Shown here in pieces: positions 3,351-13,547 of a stretch of 36,042 nucleotides of DNA (its first letter is position 1; each line of letters opens with the position of its first letter). Source of the stretch: a virus; the UHGV virus genome UHGV-0206538. One strand, written 5' to 3'. Both the position numbers and the translations under genes were made by a program. The notes under the pieces are model-generated. The model was given only the letters and a program-made list of their open reading frames with translations, did not search any database and was not told the origin of the DNA.

Positions 3351-5815
3351 TGGACAGCATTAGAATTGCGATTTTAAGTGCAAATAACACGCCTGTAGCG
3401 TTTATGGATAATGCGCATAAAAAATCCATGCACTACTGGGGAGACGAGCTGCACGAATACTTACAAGGTACGGCAAATACGTACACTTTTACGGTAAACG
3501 CAAAACATCCAGACGCAGAACATGTTACAGTCGGAAACAAGGTAGCCTTTACATACAAGGGTAAATCTTACTACTTAAATATTGTAAATACCGATCAGAC
3601 GGAGAAGATAATTACCGCTACGGCATGGTCTCTGTCATTTGAGCTTATAAACGAGGATGCTGGCGAATATAAAGCCGAAAAAGCAATGAGCTTTGCAGAG
3701 TACCTTACCGTATTTGACGCAGAGAGAACGCTGAAATTGGGGCTTAACGAGGTATCAGATAAACGGATCACCAATGAGTGGACAGGCACAACGTCTGTAT
3801 TAAAGAGGCTATTTTCTCTGGCTAACGTATTTTCGGCAGAAATCGAATTCGAGACAGTACTGAACAGAGACTACTCTTTAAAAGAGATTGTCCTAAATGT
3901 ATATCGAGAACACTCCGACACCAACAGCGGAGTCGGAGGATACCGGAATGACATCGTACTGAGGTACGGGAAAGGGATTGCCGGAATCCGTAAGACCACG
4001 GATGCAGAAAAGTTATATACATGCATCCAGCCGACCGGAAAGGACGGTCTGACAATCAATGGACTGGATAAAAAAGAATACGATGAGAATGGGAATATTG
4101 AGTACTTTACAGACGGCGCAATCATCCGGGCACCACAGGCAAGGGACCGGTTCCCATCCAATATCGTAAATAAGGCTGATGCTTATATCCTGATGCGAAA
4201 AGAGTACGATACAGACAGCAAGGACAAGCTCTATAGCATGGCACTATCTGACCTCAAGACAGCATCCGAACCAGTAGTGACCTACGAGGTGGATGGATAT
4301 TTTGACACCAACATCGGGGACACCGTGAGGATGCAGGATCAGGAGTGGACACCAGTGCTTTATCTACAGGCGAGAGTGTCCGAACAGGTGCGCAGTCTTA
4401 CAAATCCAAAGACAGCAAAGACGGTATTTACAAACTACAAAGAGCTGATGTCCGAAATATCCGACGATCTCATTAAGAGGATGCAGGACTTAATTAACAA
4501 AAACAAGGTCTACACCTGCTCAATTGCCACAAACAATGGGATTATCTTTAAAAACGGCATCGGCAGCACCACACTAACTGCCTACGCTTACAACAACGGT
4601 GTTGATGTGTCTGGAAATCTGGAAATCCGATGGAGTAAAGATGGGACAGAGTTTTATGTCGGTAGGAGCGTGACGGTTAATGCAGAGGATGTGGATGTTA
4701 AGGCGGTTTACTCATTTACGGCGTTTGAAAACGGCGTGCGTAGAGGATATTACGAGGTCACGATCACAAATGTGGAAGACGGGCAGGACGGTGTTGGAAT
4801 TAAGAGCGTTACAAAATATTACCTTGCGTCCGAAAGAAATACGGGTATTACGACATCCACTTATGGATGGACCACCACAATACAGACCATGACGGAGACA
4901 AAAAAATACCTGTGGAGTTACGAAACAATCGCCTACGCAGACGGAAATTCCACCAAGACAACTCCTGTGATTATCGGTGTGCGTGGGGATAACGGCGAGA
5001 CAGGGGATAGTGGTATTATTATATCCCCCACAGCGCCAGAAAACCCAAAGGTTGGACAGCTCTGGCAGACCGCAAGCGGAGAGCCGATTAAAAGATGGGA
5101 TGGAAGTAAATGGGTGATCTATTACATTTCTGTAGAGAATCTGAATGTAGAGACGCTAAGTGCGATTGCCGCAAACCTCGGAACTGTAACCGCTGGACTT
5201 ATAAAGAGTCTGGACGGACACTTTTTTATCCAAGTAAATACCGGAGAGATCTACTCTGAAGATGAAAACGGGATAAACAGCTCTGCAATAAGCAAGGGTG
5301 TATTTGCAGCGAATGGGATGGACAGCGGCAGACACACAAGCTTGTCTATATTCCCAACGCAGATTGCGCAGTATTTTGACGGAGCCACCATTTCAAACCT
5401 TGTTAATTTTAAACGGGACGGTATATTTGTTAAAAGCTCCGGATCATACGAAATGAACATATCTAAAGCAATAAATTATGACTCTGGAAAGATAAAAGGA
5501 CCATACGCCAGCACAAACTCATCCAACTATATACAGGCGGAGCTAAAAAGGAGAGGGTGCGTGGTTACATGTAAAATCACAGCGCTTATACAGTTCCCGA
5601 ATACAGGATCGCACGGGCCGTTTGATGAATTAAGGATCCCTATAGGATATCGACCAGCCGTAGACATAGTAGAGACGTACAGCGAATTGGTTGGTCCGTC
5701 AGTTATCGGGACTGGCAGATATTATATCTCAAAAGACGGAGGAATATCCATTGTAACTGGCAAGACAGACTACTGCGAACGCATAAAGACATTTACATGG
5801 ATCACGGATGACTAA
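3350..5815 (+). CDS. Tail-associated / minor structural protein (Tal-like, prophage tail endopeptidase-type N-terminus; C-terminal part is the probable receptor-binding region)
   Basis: 821 aa. N-terminal region resembles phage minor structural protein / tail endopeptidase family. It is the last tail gene before the lysis cassette. Confidence 0.5.
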   Translation: MDSIRIAILSANNTPVAFMDNAHKKSMHYWGDELHEYLQGTANTYTFTVNAKHPDAEHVTVGNKVAFTYKGKSYYLNIVNTDQTEKIITATAWSLSFELINEDAGEYKAEKAMSFAEYLTVFDAERTLKLGLNEVSDKRITNEWTGTTSVLKRLFSLANVFSAEIEFETVLNRDYSLKEIVLNVYREHSDTNSGVGGYRNDIVLRYGKGIAGIRKTTDAEKLYTCIQPTGKDGLTINGLDKKEYDENGNIEYFTDGAIIRAPQARDRFPSNIVNKADAYILMRKEYDTDSKDKLYSMALSDLKTASEPVVTYEVDGYFDTNIGDTVRMQDQEWTPVLYLQARVSEQVRSLTNPKTAKTVFTNYKELMSEISDDLIKRMQDLINKNKVYTCSIATNNGIIFKNGIGSTTLTAYAYNNGVDVSGNLEIRWSKDGTEFYVGRSVTVNAEDVDVKAVYSFTAFENGVRRGYYEVTITNVEDGQDGVGIKSVTKYYLASERNTGITTSTYGWTTTIQTMTETKKYLWSYETIAYADGNSTKTTPVIIGVRGDNGETGDSGIIISPTAPENPKVGQLWQTASGEPIKRWDGSKWVIYYISVENLNVETLSAIAANLGTVTAGLIKSLDGHFFIQVNTGEIYSEDENGINSSAISKGVFAANGMDSGRHTSLSIFPTQIAQYFDGATISNLVNFKRDGIFVKSSGSYEMNISKAINYDSGKIKGPYASTNSSNYIQAELKRRGCVVTCKITALIQFPNTGSHGPFDELRIPIGYRPAVDIVETYSELVGPSVIGTGRYYISKDGGISIVTGKTDYCERIKTFTWITDD

Positions 5816-7414: not shown

Positions 7415-7444
7415 AATATATAGTCAATGCGAGGGGGAATAATC

Positions 7445-7624
7445 ATGGAATATCAGATCTACGAATCTTACGATACGTTTTTACTATATCAAGAGTTTTT
7501 GGAGATACCCGGTAATACTTTTAAATTCCGGCTGCCAGAAGGGATGATCCTGACAACCGAAATGATGCACACCTTTTTACGGGCGGCGTATATGAGTGTT
7601 GGACGGATGGATCTGCCGTCCTGA
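7445..7624 (+). CDS. Small hypothetical protein (59 aa) with its own promoter. Start moved to ATG 7445 (RBS GAGGGGG).
   Basis: MEYQIYESYDTFLLYQEFLEIPGNTFKFRLPEGMILTTEMMHTFLRAAYMSVGRMDLPS; no family recognised. Confidence 0.5.
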   Translation: MEYQIYESYDTFLLYQEFLEIPGNTFKFRLPEGMILTTEMMHTFLRAAYMSVGRMDLPS

Positions 7625-7639
7625 ATATTGTATCATTTA

Positions 7640-7689
7640 TTTTGTACTAATTATACTGCCCCAAATGGGGCTAAACACTTAGTACAAAA
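7640..7689. repeat. Perfect 11-bp inverted repeat TTTTGTACTAA…TTAGTACAAAA with a 28-bp spacer containing GCCCC-AAAT-GGGGC. Either the attP candidate for the adjacent serine recombinase or a bidirectional terminator.
   Basis: Read directly; ends 4 nt before the recombinase stop codon. Confidence 0.45.
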
Positions 7690-7693
7690 CAGA

Positions 7694-9094
7694 TTATAAA
7701 AAATCTACAGCTTTAATCGTATTGTCATCATTTAGGTAAATCTCCTGTATCGTGGATCTCCAAAAAGAACGCTTGTTTTCTGGAGACAGCGAATCATACA
7801 TCTGGCGAAAGTCAGTTTTTAATAATTCTTCTACATAATGCAGGTTTCTCGTCTCTTCTTCCTCGCAAAAAGCAGCAGAAGCGGAATATTCTCTCTCCAA
7901 TCTTTGGTACTCCTTATCGTAGTAATCGTAAGAGATCCGCCCCTTTTGAAATAACAAATTTAATCGTTCCATTTCTTTTCTAAGCTTTTTCGGATCTTTC
8001 GCTTTCTTTTGCTTTTTTAACTCTTCGCTGATCTGGTTGGTGCGAACCTTATACTTTTCGTACTCTCTTTCAAGATTTTCGAGCAGATATTTTTCGATAA
8101 GGTTCTGGCTTACCCTATGCCTATACGTGCAAATATGGTCTTTAAGCGCTCTATTGCAACGGTAGTAGCAGTATGTTCTTTTTTCTCCGGTTTTACGGTT
8201 GATAATTGATGAGCATCCGGTGCCAACTAATTTCTGTCCACATACAGGACAGCGCATCAAACCTGTAAATAGGTATACTCTGCCAGATGGTGTGCTTTTT
8301 ATATTTCTTTTCGAGATAGTTTGCATCTCATTCCATTCTTTTTCTGACAGGTAGGCGGGGCAATAAGGATACCCTCTGTACGTCCCCTTGTAAAATTCGC
8401 TCGATAACATTGTTCTCAACATTCCATAGCTAAAATCAATACCATAGACCTCTTGCATGTACCGGACAGCGCCCTTCTTGGAGTTATGATTTCTAAAATA
8501 TTCAAAAAAATCTTCCACCATGTGTTCTGTTTCCGAATCTTTAACCATGCATTTCTTCCCGTCCACGACACCTGTTTTATATCCAAAAGGCATATTTGCA
8601 TCTCCGAATATTAACTTCCTCTGTCTTATAGATGCTTCATTCACAAATTTAATTCGCTCGGATGTGGTGTCTACTTCATTTTGCCCGATCGACAGCACTA
8701 CATTTAACTGCAATCGTCCGTCTCTGGTCTCCATGTTTATTCCTGGCTCGGAAACCGAGATCCAACGCACTCCATGCTCATCAAGTACATCCTGGACCTT
8801 ATAGAAATCTGACAGATTTCGAAACCATCTGTCGAGTCTCCAGAAAATTATCACATCAATTTTATCCCTTTTTACGTCCTCTACAAGAGCGTGTATGGCT
8901 TTTCTTTTCTTCAATTCTTTTCTGGCAGTCTTTCCCTCGTCCGCATAGACACCTACTATAGACATATTGTTGTCTGTTGCGTATTGCTCCAGGCATTCTT
9001 TCTGTGCTTGCAGAGACTTGCCATGTACGCTCTGCTCAAATGTGGAGACGCGGATGTATATGGCACACCGCAGTATTTTTTCTGGCATTTGCAT
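7694..9094 (-). CDS. Large serine recombinase (phage integrase). True start is ATG at 9094 (RBS AAGGAGAG); the 534-aa track ORF carries a spurious N-terminal extension.
   Basis: N-terminal resolvase domain (…AIYIRVSTFEQ…, catalytic Ser in context). Recombinase domain. Zinc-ribbon CPVCGQKL…CYYRC. C-terminal coiled coil. Confidence 0.9.
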   Translation of the reverse strand: MQMPEKILRCAIYIRVSTFEQSVHGKSLQAQKECLEQYATDNNMSIVGVYADEGKTARKELKKRKAIHALVEDVKRDKIDVIIFWRLDRWFRNLSDFYKVQDVLDEHGVRWISVSEPGINMETRDGRLQLNVVLSIGQNEVDTTSERIKFVNEASIRQRKLIFGDANMPFGYKTGVVDGKKCMVKDSETEHMVEDFFEYFRNHNSKKGAVRYMQEVYGIDFSYGMLRTMLSSEFYKGTYRGYPYCPAYLSEKEWNEMQTISKRNIKSTPSGRVYLFTGLMRCPVCGQKLVGTGCSSIINRKTGEKRTYCYYRCNRALKDHICTYRHRVSQNLIEKYLLENLEREYEKYKVRTNQISEELKKQKKAKDPKKLRKEMERLNLLFQKGRISYDYYDKEYQRLEREYSASAAFCEEEETRNLHYVEELLKTDFRQMYDSLSPENKRSFWRSTIQEIYLNDDNTIKAVDFL

Positions 9095-9263
9095 CACTCT
9101 CCTTTTGTAAAATATATTTAAAATTGGTACAAAAATAACAGCCAGCGCAAAACATATGTTCCGCTTGCGTGACTGCCCCGAAGATGATACAATATTCGTG
9201 GATTTCAATCGCATATCTTCGGATATGTATACCGTCTCTGTTGGCGCAGGGGCGGTTTTTATT

Positions 9264-10295
9264 TTATTGTGGTGGATGGCAAATGCCGCACGGTTCATAA
9301 ACTCCGCGTACCTCAGACAGATGTTTTTCTATCTTAGATTTCAAAGTTCTGCATCCAGCACTATGATACTTTGCCCCAGTGTTTGTTATATACACGATAG
9401 GATCATCTTGGCTTTGCTGTGCAGCCTGCTCTTGTGCTGCTTGCGCTGCAGCTTGCTCTTGTGCAATCCTTTCTTGTTCAGCAGCCGCTGCCGCAGCCTG
9501 TTCTTGCTCAATACGCACCTGTTCAGCTGCTTGAGCTTCCTGTTCCAACCTAATCCGTTCTTCTTCCTCGGCTTTTATTCTCGCTTCTTCTTCCGGATCT
9601 ATAACGGTAATAGTTTTCGCACTGCTTTTAACTTCTCCATTCGCCGTAAAAAATAGTGATGCATTCCCAGAACCCGTAAATGTAATGACGGCTTTTCCGT
9701 CCTTATATTCGAGATCTGCGATATTATTTTCGGATAATTCCAAACTTTCGATTTTTGCGTCCGACGGGCTTGGAGTAATTTTTACCTCCGTTACATCTCC
9801 GATATTAAATTCTTCTTTCCCCCACTCTGCAGATATAGAGTTCAATTCAGATGGAGATCCAAGCCATATAAAGATAATTAGAGATGTTGCAAACACAATC
9901 GAGCATATCACAGTATTCCTGATCCTGTATGGCCGGAATTTTTTGGATACAACACAGTATATCAATACCGGTATGGCTGGTATCCATAAAAAAGAATACA
10001 CTACAAGTGCAATAGAGAGCATTATCAGCAAGGCAATAACACTAAGACATCCACCACCACTTTTATTCGATGCTTTACTCATTGTTTTCCCCTTGTTTTC
10101 TTTAGTTTTTCCGTTTTTGGTTTCTGTGTAATACAGTCCGCTCCCTGGAATTCCAAAGCTTTTTGTCCGTTTTCCGTCAGAATTAACAGTGTAGTGTATT
10201 CCTTTTCCGCCAAACGTGAAGCTATGGCTATTCTTGTTAAGATTAAACTTTATACCGGGAGCAATTTTAAAACTTTTTCTAAAACGAAATCCCAT
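9264..10295 (-). CDS. DUF4236-domain membrane protein with an extracytoplasmic beta-rich region, an Ala/Gln/Glu-rich coiled coil and a C-terminal Cys motif (…GAKYHSAGCRTL…EPCGICHP)
   Basis: N-terminus MGFRFRKSFKIAPGIKFNLNKNS…FGGKG matches DUF4236. Two to three TM helices. Low-complexity DNA repeats at 9420-9560. Confidence 0.6.
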   Translation of the reverse strand: MGFRFRKSFKIAPGIKFNLNKNSHSFTFGGKGIHYTVNSDGKRTKSFGIPGSGLYYTETKNGKTKENKGKTMSKASNKSGGGCLSVIALLIMLSIALVVYSFLWIPAIPVLIYCVVSKKFRPYRIRNTVICSIVFATSLIIFIWLGSPSELNSISAEWGKEEFNIGDVTEVKITPSPSDAKIESLELSENNIADLEYKDGKAVITFTGSGNASLFFTANGEVKSSAKTITVIDPEEEARIKAEEEERIRLEQEAQAAEQVRIEQEQAAAAAAEQERIAQEQAAAQAAQEQAAQQSQDDPIVYITNTGAKYHSAGCRTLKSKIEKHLSEVRGVYEPCGICHPPQ

Positions 10296-10428: not shown

Positions 10429-10626
10429 ATGAAGATACTACTCGATAAGATCATGCACGATAAAAACCTATCTACTCGGCAAGTATCCATTGCAACTGGA
10501 ATATCAAAATCAACGATTAACCGCATTGCAAATGGTAAAATATCGCCGACAGCTGACACGCTGGAATTGCTTGCCAAGGACTTAAAAGTCCGAATTTCCG
10601 ACCTTATCGACTCTCCATATCAATAA
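10429..10626 (+). CDS. XRE-family helix-turn-helix transcriptional regulator (65 aa)
   Basis: …LSTRQVSIATGISKSTINRIANGKISPTADTLELLAKDL… is a classic HTH_3. No Shine-Dalgarno is visible, so possibly leaderless. Confidence 0.65.
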   Translation: MKILLDKIMHDKNLSTRQVSIATGISKSTINRIANGKISPTADTLELLAKDLKVRISDLIDSPYQ

Positions 10627-10925: not shown

Positions 10926-10945
10926 GCTATTGCTTACCCTTTTTA
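10916..10945. terminator. Bidirectional hairpin AAAGGGTA-ggctattgct-TACCCTTT between convergent genes
   Basis: Perfect 8-bp stem; T-run on + side (TTTT) and on - side. Confidence 0.45.
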
Positions 10946-11271
10946 GAAAGCGATTCGATAAGATGCTTTATGGCTTCCTTGTCGGATTCATCTAAAGAAT
11001 AGTAACAAGATATCATATTGATAATCTCTTGATCTTTCATTATTCGTCCAACTAATGTTCCACTTTCTTCTCTGGAATAATTTCCAAAAAAGTCGTTTGG
11101 TATCATTTCCAGCACTTCACATAATCTTTCTATAGTATCAGCGTCTGGTTTATTCTTATTATTTTCCCAATCGCTTATTGAATTATGTTTTGCACCTATT
11201 AAATTCGCAAGTTCTTTTTGAGTCATGTTTTTCTTTTTTCTGTATTCCTTTATTTTCTCTCCTAAACTCAT
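10927..11271 (-). CDS. CI-like phage repressor (XRE HTH plus a C-terminal oligomerisation/sensor domain). Start moved to ATG 11271 (RBS AAGGAGGA).
   Basis: MSLGEKIKEYRKKKNMTQKELANLIGAKHNSISDWENNKNKP… HTH_3. Divergent from the cro-like gene, with operators in between. Confidence 0.8.
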   Translation of the reverse strand: MSLGEKIKEYRKKKNMTQKELANLIGAKHNSISDWENNKNKPDADTIERLCEVLEMIPNDFFGNYSREESGTLVGRIMKDQEIINMISCYYSLDESDKEAIKHLIESLSKKGKQ

Positions 11272-11289
11272 TATGCTTCCTCCTTGCAT

Positions 11290-11430
11290 TTTCTATATTA
11301 ACACATAGAAATTATATTTTCAACAAAAAAAGTTCGAAAAAATCGAAATTTTAGTGTTGACATTCGAATATTTCGAAGTTATAATGAAATTAGTTCGAAC
11401 GAATCGAAAAATGAAAGAGGTGATTACGGA
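11290..11430. promoter_or_regulatory. Genetic-switch region. Rightward promoter TTGACA(11357-11362)-17-TATAAT(11380-11385). A leftward TTGAAA-17-TAATAT candidate. At least six TTCGAA / GTTCGAAC / TCGAA operator copies (11333, 11343, 11363, 11372, 11393, 11404).
   Basis: Read directly. Two TTCGAA copies lie in the spacer of the rightward promoter, the classic operator/promoter overlap. Confidence 0.75.
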
Positions 11431-12407: not shown

Positions 12408-12463
12408 GTCGTTCCAAGCCCGGAAGATGCAGAGGACAGAATATAAGGAAGGAGGAAAATGAT

Positions 12464-12667
12464 ATGTGGATTTCACGATGGTATTGGGAATCTCAAATAA
12501 GGCAGAGAGATGAGCTTGAAAGAAGAGTGAAGAGATTGGAACTTATTGTGTTGAAAGATGCGGAAAGCAAAATTGCCAACCTCAAAGATAAAGAGGTTGG
12601 CACGATAAAGAATGACGGAATATCAACTATTGAGGAAGTCGTTAATCAAAAATTTAACTCGGTTTGA
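12464..12667 (+). CDS. Small coiled-coil protein (67 aa)
   Basis: Very strong RBS AAGGAAGGAGGAAAA. The 3' end overlaps by 45 nt, convergently, with the minus-strand ORF at 12623. Confidence 0.5.
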   Translation: MWISRWYWESQIRQRDELERRVKRLELIVLKDAESKIANLKDKEVGTIKNDGISTIEEVVNQKFNSV

Positions 12668-13051
12668 TTTCTCTTCGACAAGATTGAATAAGCGAGTTAA
12701 TTGAATGTGATCATCAGTGATAGAGCTGTTTGTAATTTCGGTGGAGAAACGACTGCTATCATCCTGCATGCGTAAAGAAAATAGGCATTTATCTGGCGGA
12801 ATAGGACAAGGAATATTTTTATTATCGCGATAAGCGAGTAGCAGAATGTAACCATTTTTATATTTGGAAAAATAGCTGTAACGATTATCTAATTCGTGAA
12901 AGTCGTTAGAAGAATAAAACGGACAATTTTCTTCAATCGAAGTTGGCTTGTACAGATTATCCTTTTTGTCGATTACAGACCAATAAAGTTGTTCTGAATG
13001 TGTTTTCTCGAAAACTTTTTCGATAAATGTAGATATTTTTTCTCTTTCCAT
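12623..13051 (-). CDS. Hypothetical 142-aa soluble protein, distal gene of a minus-strand two-gene cassette
   Basis: No recognisable family. Opposite orientation to the surrounding early operon. Confidence 0.55.
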   Translation of the reverse strand: MEREKISTFIEKVFEKTHSEQLYWSVIDKKDNLYKPTSIEENCPFYSSNDFHELDNRYSYFSKYKNGYILLLAYRDNKNIPCPIPPDKCLFSLRMQDDSSRFSTEITNSSITDDHIQLTRLFNLVEEKSNRVKFLINDFLNS

Positions 13052-13055
13052 TTGT

Positions 13056-13442
13056 TTACTCCTTTTTATTTAAGCGTGCTATTAAAAAGTTGAGATCTTG
13101 CCGTATTTTTCTTTTGCTAGACTCGGTTATTTCGGATTTCAGAAGATGCAAACATCTATATAAATGGAATGAACAACGAATCGAAGATATTAACGAGTAT
13201 TTTATTTGAAATTCGTATATTTTGCTCTGCAATTTATCTTGGATGCTTAATGTAAACAATCCGTCGTCCCAAATGTTTTGCCGCAACGCAATGAGGGCAT
13301 AGAGCAACTCTTCTCGTTCATTTTTGTAAGATTCTCTCTGACTTTCGGCTTTTGCGTAAACTTTTTTCAGAATACCGATAGATAAGAAAAAGCTTATAAA
13401 TCCTAGGATGTCGCATATTCGACTAAAAGTAGTCCAAAACAT
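13056..13442 (-). CDS. Hypothetical 128-aa protein with an N-terminal transmembrane helix, proximal gene of the minus-strand cassette
   Basis: FWTTFSRICDILGFISFFLSIGIL TM segment followed by a helical cytoplasmic region. RBS AAAGGAGG. A 4-nt gap separates it from the downstream ORF. Confidence 0.55.
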   Translation of the reverse strand: MFWTTFSRICDILGFISFFLSIGILKKVYAKAESQRESYKNEREELLYALIALRQNIWDDGLFTLSIQDKLQSKIYEFQIKYSLISSIRCSFHLYRCLHLLKSEITESSKRKIRQDLNFLIARLNKKE

Positions 13443-13446
13443 AATT

Positions 13447-13497
13447 ATGGTAAACCTCCTTTAAATGGATTTTACCATGTTGCAACAAATAAAACAA
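13447..13497 (-). promoter_or_regulatory. Leftward promoter TTGTTT-17-TGgTAAAAT (extended -10) for the cassette, overlapped by the perfect inverted repeat ATGGTAAA(13447-13454)…TTTACCAT(13471-13478)
   Basis: Read directly on the minus strand; the repeat spans the -10 to RBS region. Confidence 0.45.
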
Positions 13498-13547
13498 TCC
13501 CGCCACGGAGGTTACGACGGCAATGAAAGAATAGGAGGTAAAAGGTA

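Follow-up and report, generated by a model that had tools for sequence, protein, structure and literature searches.

The UHGV virus genome UHGV-0206538, a stretch of 36,042 nucleotides (nt) that is referred to below in its entirety as the window, comes from a temperate siphovirus of Mediterraneibacter (Ruminococcus) gnavus and carries in its early lytic region a cassette of two genes that run backwards to the genes around them (Table 1). The upstream gene of the cassette, TM, codes for a small membrane-anchored protein and the downstream gene, S, for its soluble partner; S starts 4 nt past the stop codon of TM and has its own AAGGAG ribosome-binding site at 13059-13067, and the two genes are translationally coupled. 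A third gene, CC, converges on the cassette and overlaps the end of S by 45 nt (12623-12667). The coordinates given for these three open reading frames in a preliminary description of this DNA, made from the sequence alone, were exact, and its naming of the flanking genes as Rha and AntA/KilAC antirepressors was borne out by Pfam matches (PF09669, E 2e-24, for Rha; PF08346 and PF03374 for AntA/ANT, i.e. AntA/KilAC). Its picture of a region with essentially every gene on the + strand holds from 11431 to the window end, where all long open reading frames outside the cassette lie on that strand, but it had overlooked the minus-strand lysogeny genes just upstream (integrase, 7694-9298; DUF4236 protein, 9264-10295; repressor, 10927-11289). 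Since these lie on the - strand, the cassette is co-oriented with the lysogeny module, and CC, Rha and cro, on the opposite strand, stand between it and the repressor.

Table 1. Features of the TM-S cassette and of the neighbouring immunity region in the window.
Feature	Position	Strand	Description
TM gene	13056-13442	-	128-amino-acid (aa) membrane-anchored protein; N-terminal membrane helix (~residues 5-25), then predicted cytoplasmic four-helix bundle
S gene	12623-13051	-	142-aa soluble partner
CC gene	12464-12667	+	67-aa coiled-coil protein; part of early lytic operon; converges on cassette
Ribosome-binding site of TM gene	13455-13462	-	AAAGGAGG; read from sequence
-35 element of cassette promoter	13492-13497	-	TTGTTT; read from sequence
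Extended -10 element of cassette promoter	13469-13477	-	TGGTAAAAT; read from sequence
Intrinsic terminator of cassette	12562-12602	-	10-bp stem UGCCAACCUC/GAGGUUGGCA, 9-nt loop, then AUUUUGCUUUCC; inside CC gene, antisense
Swapped block relative to Ruminococcus phage RG-TP1	12402-13486		CC + S + TM + core promoter; blastn
Repressor operators	11333-11408		Three copies of TTCGAAnnnnnTCGAA in repressor-cro intergenic region; 15-bp inverted repeats TTCGAAAAAATCGAA, TTCGAATATTTCGAA, TTCGAACGAATCGAA
Early promoter	11357-11385	+	Perfect consensus TTGACA-17-TATAAT; promoter scan

Comparison with related phages shows that the block carrying the cassette is accessory, because it is missing from phages with a repressor-cro-Rha region that is 96% identical. 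This region is shared at 95-96% identity with the Ruminococcus phages RG-TP1 and phiRg519T2, both of which are without the cassette. In blastn alignments with RG-TP1, 96% identity extends up to 12401 and resumes at 13487, with gp48 and gp49 in place of the block, and phiRg519T2 has gp26-gp28 there instead; each of these replacement sets includes a backward-facing gene. The one in RG-TP1, gp49 (L001 4442-4699; L numbers designate the loci compared), codes for 85 aa and is annotated as a 3-hydroxyacyl-CoA dehydrogenase; a product this small can hardly be such an enzyme, and the annotation has the look of an artefact. The same block is found in unrelated backbones (L003, L021, L011-L015 and L068), and with L021 only 12461-13528 is held in common, at 94% identity. 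The identities within the block are themselves mosaic, being 99% for CC and 89% for S and TM relative to L003, and 82% for CC and 96-97% for S and TM relative to L021. The GC (guanine plus cytosine) content is approximately 33% across the cassette and 40-45% in the flanking Rha and Ant genes.

The morons described by Hendrix and colleagues are autonomous promoter-gene-terminator units that lie between the genes of a phage operon, deviate in base composition, and are present in some and absent from other near-identical phages. The cassette has, on sequence evidence, its own promoter, its own terminator, and a pattern of presence and absence coupled with atypical GC content, and would thus be a classical moron, a self-contained unit inserted backwards in the early lytic operon. 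It departs from classical morons in being antisense to its host operon and in having its terminator embedded in a neighbouring convergent coding sequence. As a prophage moron, the TM-S unit is fairly widespread and has not been described before; two studies of R. gnavus phages make no mention of it (PMC10072058, PMC13435783).

The preliminary description had given the cassette its own extended -10 promoter, and both the presence of the elements and the recurrence of their arrangement in diverged loci agree with this. The two elements are separated by a 17-nt spacer, and the -35 hexamer matches the consensus at only 3/6 bases, which is why the consensus promoter scan did not list the site. The pattern TTGnnn-17-TGnTAAA(A/G)T stands upstream of TM in the window, in L003, L007, L011 and L015, and in the distant L068, and the extended -10 element TGnTAAA(A/G)T is kept in seven loci, i.e. 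these six and L069, which retains at least the TGATAAAAT element; the DNA around the promoter in the diverged L007, L011 and L015 is unalignable with that of the window. The same description had noted a strong ribosome-binding site; ribosome-binding sites are present, although the gap between AAAGGAGG and the ATG of TM is long in the window (12 nt, compared to 6-9 nt in relatives). No copy of the repressor operator TTCGAAnnnnnTCGAA lies at the cassette promoter, all three copies being confined to the cI-cro region, where they bracket the early promoter with the middle copy in its spacer. The cassette promoter thus appears to be free of repressor control. A palindrome in the spacer of the cassette promoter, TGTTGCAACA, was considered as an operator and rejected, as it occurs once in the window, is not kept in L003, L007, L011 or L015, and is unlike TTCGAAnnnnnTCGAA. 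Just upstream of the cassette -35 element lies a hairpin (CCGTCGTAACCTCCGTGGCGG on the minus strand, 13500-13520), which falls in the segment 13487-13559 that is common to RG-TP1, a phage with a different backward-facing gene at this place (gp49). Different cargos may have the right-hand edge of the slot in common, the -35 region included.

The cassette also has an intrinsic terminator, a feature that is new relative to the preliminary description. Its GC-rich hairpin (12574-12602; fold z -2.76) begins approximately 20 nt past the stop codon of S, and was missed by the consensus scan because its loop of 9 nt is beyond the 8-nt limit of that scan. The hairpin and T-tract are present in 27/27 distinct downstream sequences, among them that of L068, where the convergent gene is non-homologous to CC, and that of L090, where the hairpin is at another position. 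RNAalifold recovered 10 pairs, 4 of them with compensatory changes; the hairpin spans the CC codons for ANLKDKEVG, and in CC proteins the stem is reflected in covariation of N/V and S/A. As no U-tract comes after the hairpin on the + strand, the terminator should be one-directional, stopping only the cassette transcript, and early lytic transcription should pass through it. The cassette, having a promoter and a terminator of its own, is predicted to be a complete and autonomous transcription unit. Read-through from the cassette into cro and the repressor, in the manner of lambda PRE, is suggested by the geometry of the locus and was rejected, being opposed by the conserved terminator so close to the end of S.

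The CC product had been offered in the preliminary description as a possible antisense or antitoxin-like partner of the cassette, a role that comparison across loci does not bear out. CC, which has the core sequence WIPKWYWExQxRxxxELERRVKRLEL..L.DAxNKIASL, is found next to the cassette wherever a close cassette homolog is present and the sequence extends far enough. CC homologs also occur without TM-S in 13 viral loci, which rules CC out as an obligate partner, and the tail that overlaps S is missing where CC stops earlier (L011 and L029 types). The likeness of this tail to S is one of antisense codons, TIEEIINQ... being the antisense, in-phase reading of the codons for the conserved S C-terminus LIDDFLNS. 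The clearest link of CC to the cassette is that the cassette terminator lies antisense within it. Most of the CC-only loci examined (L045, L046, L052-L054) retain this hairpin and T-tract, and other backward-facing genes lie downstream of CC in several such loci (L042 1975-2340, L052 3421-4029, L045 3001-3357), those of L042 and L052 having a predicted membrane segment; the site accordingly acts as a general slot for cargo that faces backwards. CC can be read as the left border of this cargo slot, supplying a one-directional terminator, and not as an antitoxin-like partner, although the CC protein may still have some link to the cassette proteins. At L068, the convergent gene that takes the place of CC (2074-2391, - strand) codes for a 105-aa protein with an N-terminal hydrophobic segment, and the C-terminus of this protein, NEFIDDFLKS, resembles the LIDDFLNS of S, the two genes ending tail to tail. 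This likeness could reflect a shared docking motif or an inverted duplication.

The TM and S pair is present in approximately 45 loci, in Lachnospiraceae prophages with unrelated backbones, the hosts being M. gnavus, Blautia glucerasea, Oliverpabstia and uncultured Lachnospiraceae. Four matches in reference genomes are to Lachnospiraceae or Clostridia contigs, each of which has the same three-gene layout. Linkage was counted over loci with enough sequence that had been found via S, TM or CC, and the metagenome scan used the TM alignment. TM and S are adjacent in every one of these loci, and distant members of the S family (E 1e-15 and 1e-9) have a TM homolog upstream (E 1e-30). An apparent TM without S in L075 (3982-4650) proved to be an adaptor chimera, in which a truncated TM is joined to a manganese-catalase-like gene by a junction that encodes MCIRDR (Nextera adaptor). 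The preliminary description had looked to occurrences at variable positions in other prophages; the position of the pair is instead fixed, directly after the cro-proximal small gene in every locus, where it converges on the early operon and runs in the direction of the repressor and integrase genes. In 17 of 22 distinct contexts, the next gene on the cassette strand with a product of 100 aa or more specifies an XRE-type helix-turn-helix (HTH) repressor, which in two cases has an S24 peptidase domain, and the repressor types found beside the cassette are short XRE proteins, ImmR-like proteins accompanied by M78 peptidases, and LexA-like S24 proteins. Cassette-bearing phages also differ in their replication modules and integrase types, and every locus with examined flanks lies in a prophage immunity region.

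Several copies of the unit are disrupted. In L006 (8001-8425) S is frameshifted at an A-run and TM is intact, in L010 (224-612) and L031 (3564-3950) TM is frameshifted and has an in-frame stop, respectively, with S intact, and in L008 TM is split into two oppositely oriented pieces (8001-8177 and 13295-13501) approximately 5 kb apart, again with S intact. The DNA between the two TM pieces of L008 carries Uma2, DUF8426 and M78 peptidase genes, an insertion sequence with an rve transposase, and HTH genes. These disrupted copies come from metagenome assemblies and some could be assembly errors.

Median pairwise ratios of nonsynonymous to synonymous substitution (dN/dS) were 0.12 for TM, 0.31 for S and 0.27 for CC, and all three genes are therefore protein-coding and under purifying selection. 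The single N-terminal membrane helix of TM and the soluble nature of S, as proposed in the preliminary description, are consistent with Kyte-Doolittle hydropathy over 19 residues, which reaches a maximum of 1.77 at residues 7-25 of TM, the sole hydrophobic segment of the protein, and peaks at only 0.13 in S. No signal peptide was found in S, and inspection of the TM N-terminus by eye revealed no lipobox. The AlphaFold model of TM, predicted from a six-sequence alignment (predicted local distance difference test score of 85), consists of helices at residues 2-58, 65-82, 88-102 and 107-125, i.e. one long helix and three soluble helices, and homologs share 57-97% identity with the window protein and are all 128 aa long. 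In an alignment of 16 close relatives, the sequence after the membrane helix is rich in K/R and an Asp within the helix is invariant; the positive-inside rule would most likely place the bundle in the cytoplasm, on the same side as S. A C-x2-H-x3-C-x-H zinc site in TM was considered and rejected, since it is kept in close relatives but the cysteines are lost in the distant L068 and L069. The predicted structure of S is alpha/beta, without a convincing fold match.

Word-based searching reached no further than close relatives of the window S and TM, and it was the S protein of the divergent L007, a locus that carries all three genes, which as query opened a larger family. The S profile matched 127 clusters among 1.84 billion representatives, nearly all of them stand-alone proteins of ~105-160 aa, the remainder being shorter fragments and two long repeat proteins with weak local matches. 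Residues T17, W24, S59, L71, L93, Q96, L118, R120 and L121 are near-invariant across this broad family; they do not suggest a catalytic site, and neither protein appears to have an obvious set of catalytic residues. S evolves faster than TM, mainly in surface loops: identity to the window proteins in diverged loci is 57-65% for TM and 31-44% for S, and relative to L011 it is 71-77% and 40-64%, respectively. The preliminary description could place neither protein in any family, and this is still the case after wider searches. TM, S and CC of the window had no credible match in Pfam, PHROGs, PADLOC or NCBIfam (marginal ones only, best E 0.017), S had no Pfam match at E up to 1, and tblastn of the three proteins against 50,697 GenBank phage records gave no match. 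Among 86 relatives of S there was no consistent Pfam match, only scattered single matches to PADLOC models, and no PDB sequence match; 16 relatives of TM had no PADLOC match, the TM family is also without a Pfam family or a PDB sequence match, and profiles of both families found nothing among PDB sequences. The structural and defence-catalogue comparisons that the preliminary description had called for were run with Foldseek against viral models and with PADLOC; Foldseek matched only two uncharacterised gut siphovirus proteins.

There are precedents for a moron of this shape in RexAB of lambda and gp30/31 of Sbash (PMC6426596) and in gp30/31 of Butters (PMC7542560). Like the cassette, each of these is a pair of adjacent prophage genes, one for a soluble cytoplasmic protein and one for a small membrane protein, and each is located in or beside the immunity region, is accessory and patchy, and has expression in the lysogen either proposed or demonstrated (PMC6426596, PMC7542560). 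The cassette differs from them in lacking any sequence or domain homology, with no DUF4747 found in S or consistently in its 86 relatives; in gene order, the membrane gene being first; and in its host, a gut Firmicute. TM has one helix and a predicted cytoplasmic bundle, whereas RexB-like membrane proteins have four helices, and the cassette has its own promoter and terminator, whereas RexAB-type genes are co-transcribed with the repressor. The comparison with rexAB drawn in the preliminary description is therefore no more than a loose one, and membership of the RexAB family is contradicted by every feature tested (no DUF4747, one helix not four, and separate transcription).

The abortive-infection (Abi) proteins PdpSau of Staphylococcus aureus prophages and AbiP of Lactococcus have an N-terminal membrane anchor, and PdpSau brings about membrane depolarisation upon infection (PMC10127798). 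They resemble the cassette in being accessory genes of Firmicutes mobile elements and in combining a single N-terminal helix with a cytoplasmic C-terminal domain, but are single-gene systems of ~250-280 aa with a nucleic-acid-binding OB-fold (oligonucleotide/oligosaccharide-binding) domain. TM has instead a four-helix bundle of ~100 aa and an obligate soluble partner, and no sequence similarity to PdpSau or AbiP was detected. The superinfection-exclusion (Sie) proteins of the Sie2009 and Ltp types, from lactococcal and streptococcal temperate phages, are likewise small, membrane-associated, patchy, and expressed from the prophage in the lysogenic orientation. They are encoded by single genes between the integrase and repressor, and their functional part is extracellular or in the membrane. 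The Sie-type arrangement suggested in the preliminary description is thus seen in the small membrane protein and the lysogenic orientation, and departs from the type in the two genes of the cassette, their location on the lytic side of cro, and the predicted cytoplasmic orientation of both products.

By analogy with these systems, the cassette may be a moron that is expressed in the lysogen and serves exclusion or abortive infection, similar in function to RexAB but not homologous to it, a reading to which we would give somewhat less than an even chance. We infer that the cassette is expressed in the lysogen because the early promoter facing it would be repressed there and its own promoter, being without an operator, would be transcribed freely. 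At the inner face of the membrane, TM and S would then constitute a sensor-effector pair. This pair would either stop a superinfecting phage as its DNA enters or directly afterwards, or sense an infection cue upon which the anchored TM would disturb the membrane, leading to abortive infection like that by RexAB of lambda and gp30/31 of Sbash. Upon induction, strong head-on transcription from the consensus early promoter would cross the whole cassette and silence it, so that the prophage would not exclude itself. In a wider form of this proposal, which we hold with less confidence and regard as rather doubtful, TM-S would found a new prophage exclusion or abortive-infection family, widespread in human-gut Lachnospiraceae, in which a fast-evolving soluble sensor gates a single-pass membrane effector that is silenced by head-on transcription, with CC serving as a landing pad through its antisense terminator. 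Several points weigh against an exclusion function. Known membrane effectors of this kind usually have at least two helices and TM has one, neither cassette protein matches any of the 5027 models of PADLOC-DB v2 and their relatives none consistently, the topology of TM and its contact with S are predictions only, the -35 element is a weak one and in the window the ribosome-binding site stands far from the start codon, and the position beside cro and the repressor is fixed, as for a part of the lysis-lysogeny circuitry.

The last point leads to an alternative in which the cassette is an accessory part of the lysis-lysogeny switch. Head-on transcription, the two proteins, or both would in that case dampen the early operon (Ant and the replication genes) and so stabilise lysogeny, or TM would relay an envelope signal to induction. 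The unit has an invariant place just past cro and CC in every context examined, where it points at the early promoter and reads in the same direction as the repressor gene; in the window it lies between two antirepressor-type genes. Furthermore, the consensus scan found no + strand promoter between the cassette and Ant, and early transcripts must therefore cross the cassette head-on. Such a role is nevertheless unlikely, since a 96% identical repressor-cro-Rha region works without the unit in RG-TP1 and phiRg519T2, and the conserved terminator would end the cassette transcript ahead of cro and the repressor. The unit is also accompanied by unrelated repressor types, so that a specific protein contact with the switch is improbable, and interference alone would need no two well-conserved proteins.

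The pair might also serve lysogenic conversion apart from defence, altering the envelope physiology, stress tolerance, division or sporulation of the host to the benefit of the gut lysogen. This would come with the same moron anatomy as an exclusion function, and would suit two proteins that match no defence model, appear non-enzymatic, and are predicted to act at the membrane. We consider it quite unlikely, because the family appears to be confined to prophage immunity regions and the faster evolution of S relative to TM suits an arms race better than a housekeeping interaction. More improbable still is a toxin-antitoxin or addiction pair, in which TM would be a holin-like toxin restrained by S, or by the CC protein or an antisense transcript. 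A small membrane protein with a tightly coupled partner, the convergent 3' overlap with CC, and the Asp that is invariant in the membrane helix of the 16 close TM relatives would all be in keeping with such a pair. On the other hand, either partner is found disrupted alone (S in L006; TM in L010, L031 and L008), some of these cases possibly being assembly errors, and no DNA-binding antitoxin domain of the HTH, ribbon-helix-helix or AbrB type was found in S, TM or CC. CC is also present in 13 loci that lack the cassette, and can do without its overlapping tail; the cassette transcript would end within CC, leaving only a short antisense overlap.

An exclusion function of the cassette would be of interest beyond this phage. 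R. gnavus is linked to inflammatory bowel disease, and to our knowledge very few anti-phage functions have been experimentally shown in the dominant gut Firmicutes. Resistance and cross-immunity that are unexplained by repressors, CRISPR or known systems have been reported in work on R. gnavus phages (PMC10072058, PMC13435783). If TM-S does act in phage exclusion, it would add a new pair of protein families to the defence catalogue and would matter for phage-based manipulation of R. gnavus. The small size of the cassette (0.9 kb), its conservation, and the fact that its promoter and terminator are defined make it easy to clone and to test against existing R. gnavus phage collections; it is plausibly a good and easily testable defence candidate, its function being proposed by analogy. 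Whatever the function, the antisense terminator in a conserved early gene suggests how a lytic operon can take in backward cargo and stay intact.

On their lysogeny side, between the repressor and integrase, several related prophages carry further cargo that is probably accessory or defensive. L068 has a SNIPE/T5orf172 protein there (3692-5071), L015 a DUF3800 protein (7801-8487), and L017 an adjacent pair of genes for 62 aa and 136 aa (~7418-8036) that is HicA/HicB-like by eye only. In the window, a 65-aa HTH protein (MKILLDKIMHDKNLSTRQVS...) is encoded on the + strand at 10429-10626, between the DUF4236 gene and the repressor and on the strand opposite to both. Close homologs are present at the equivalent place in the unrelated phages L003 and L011, and this protein may be a second regulator of the lysogeny module.

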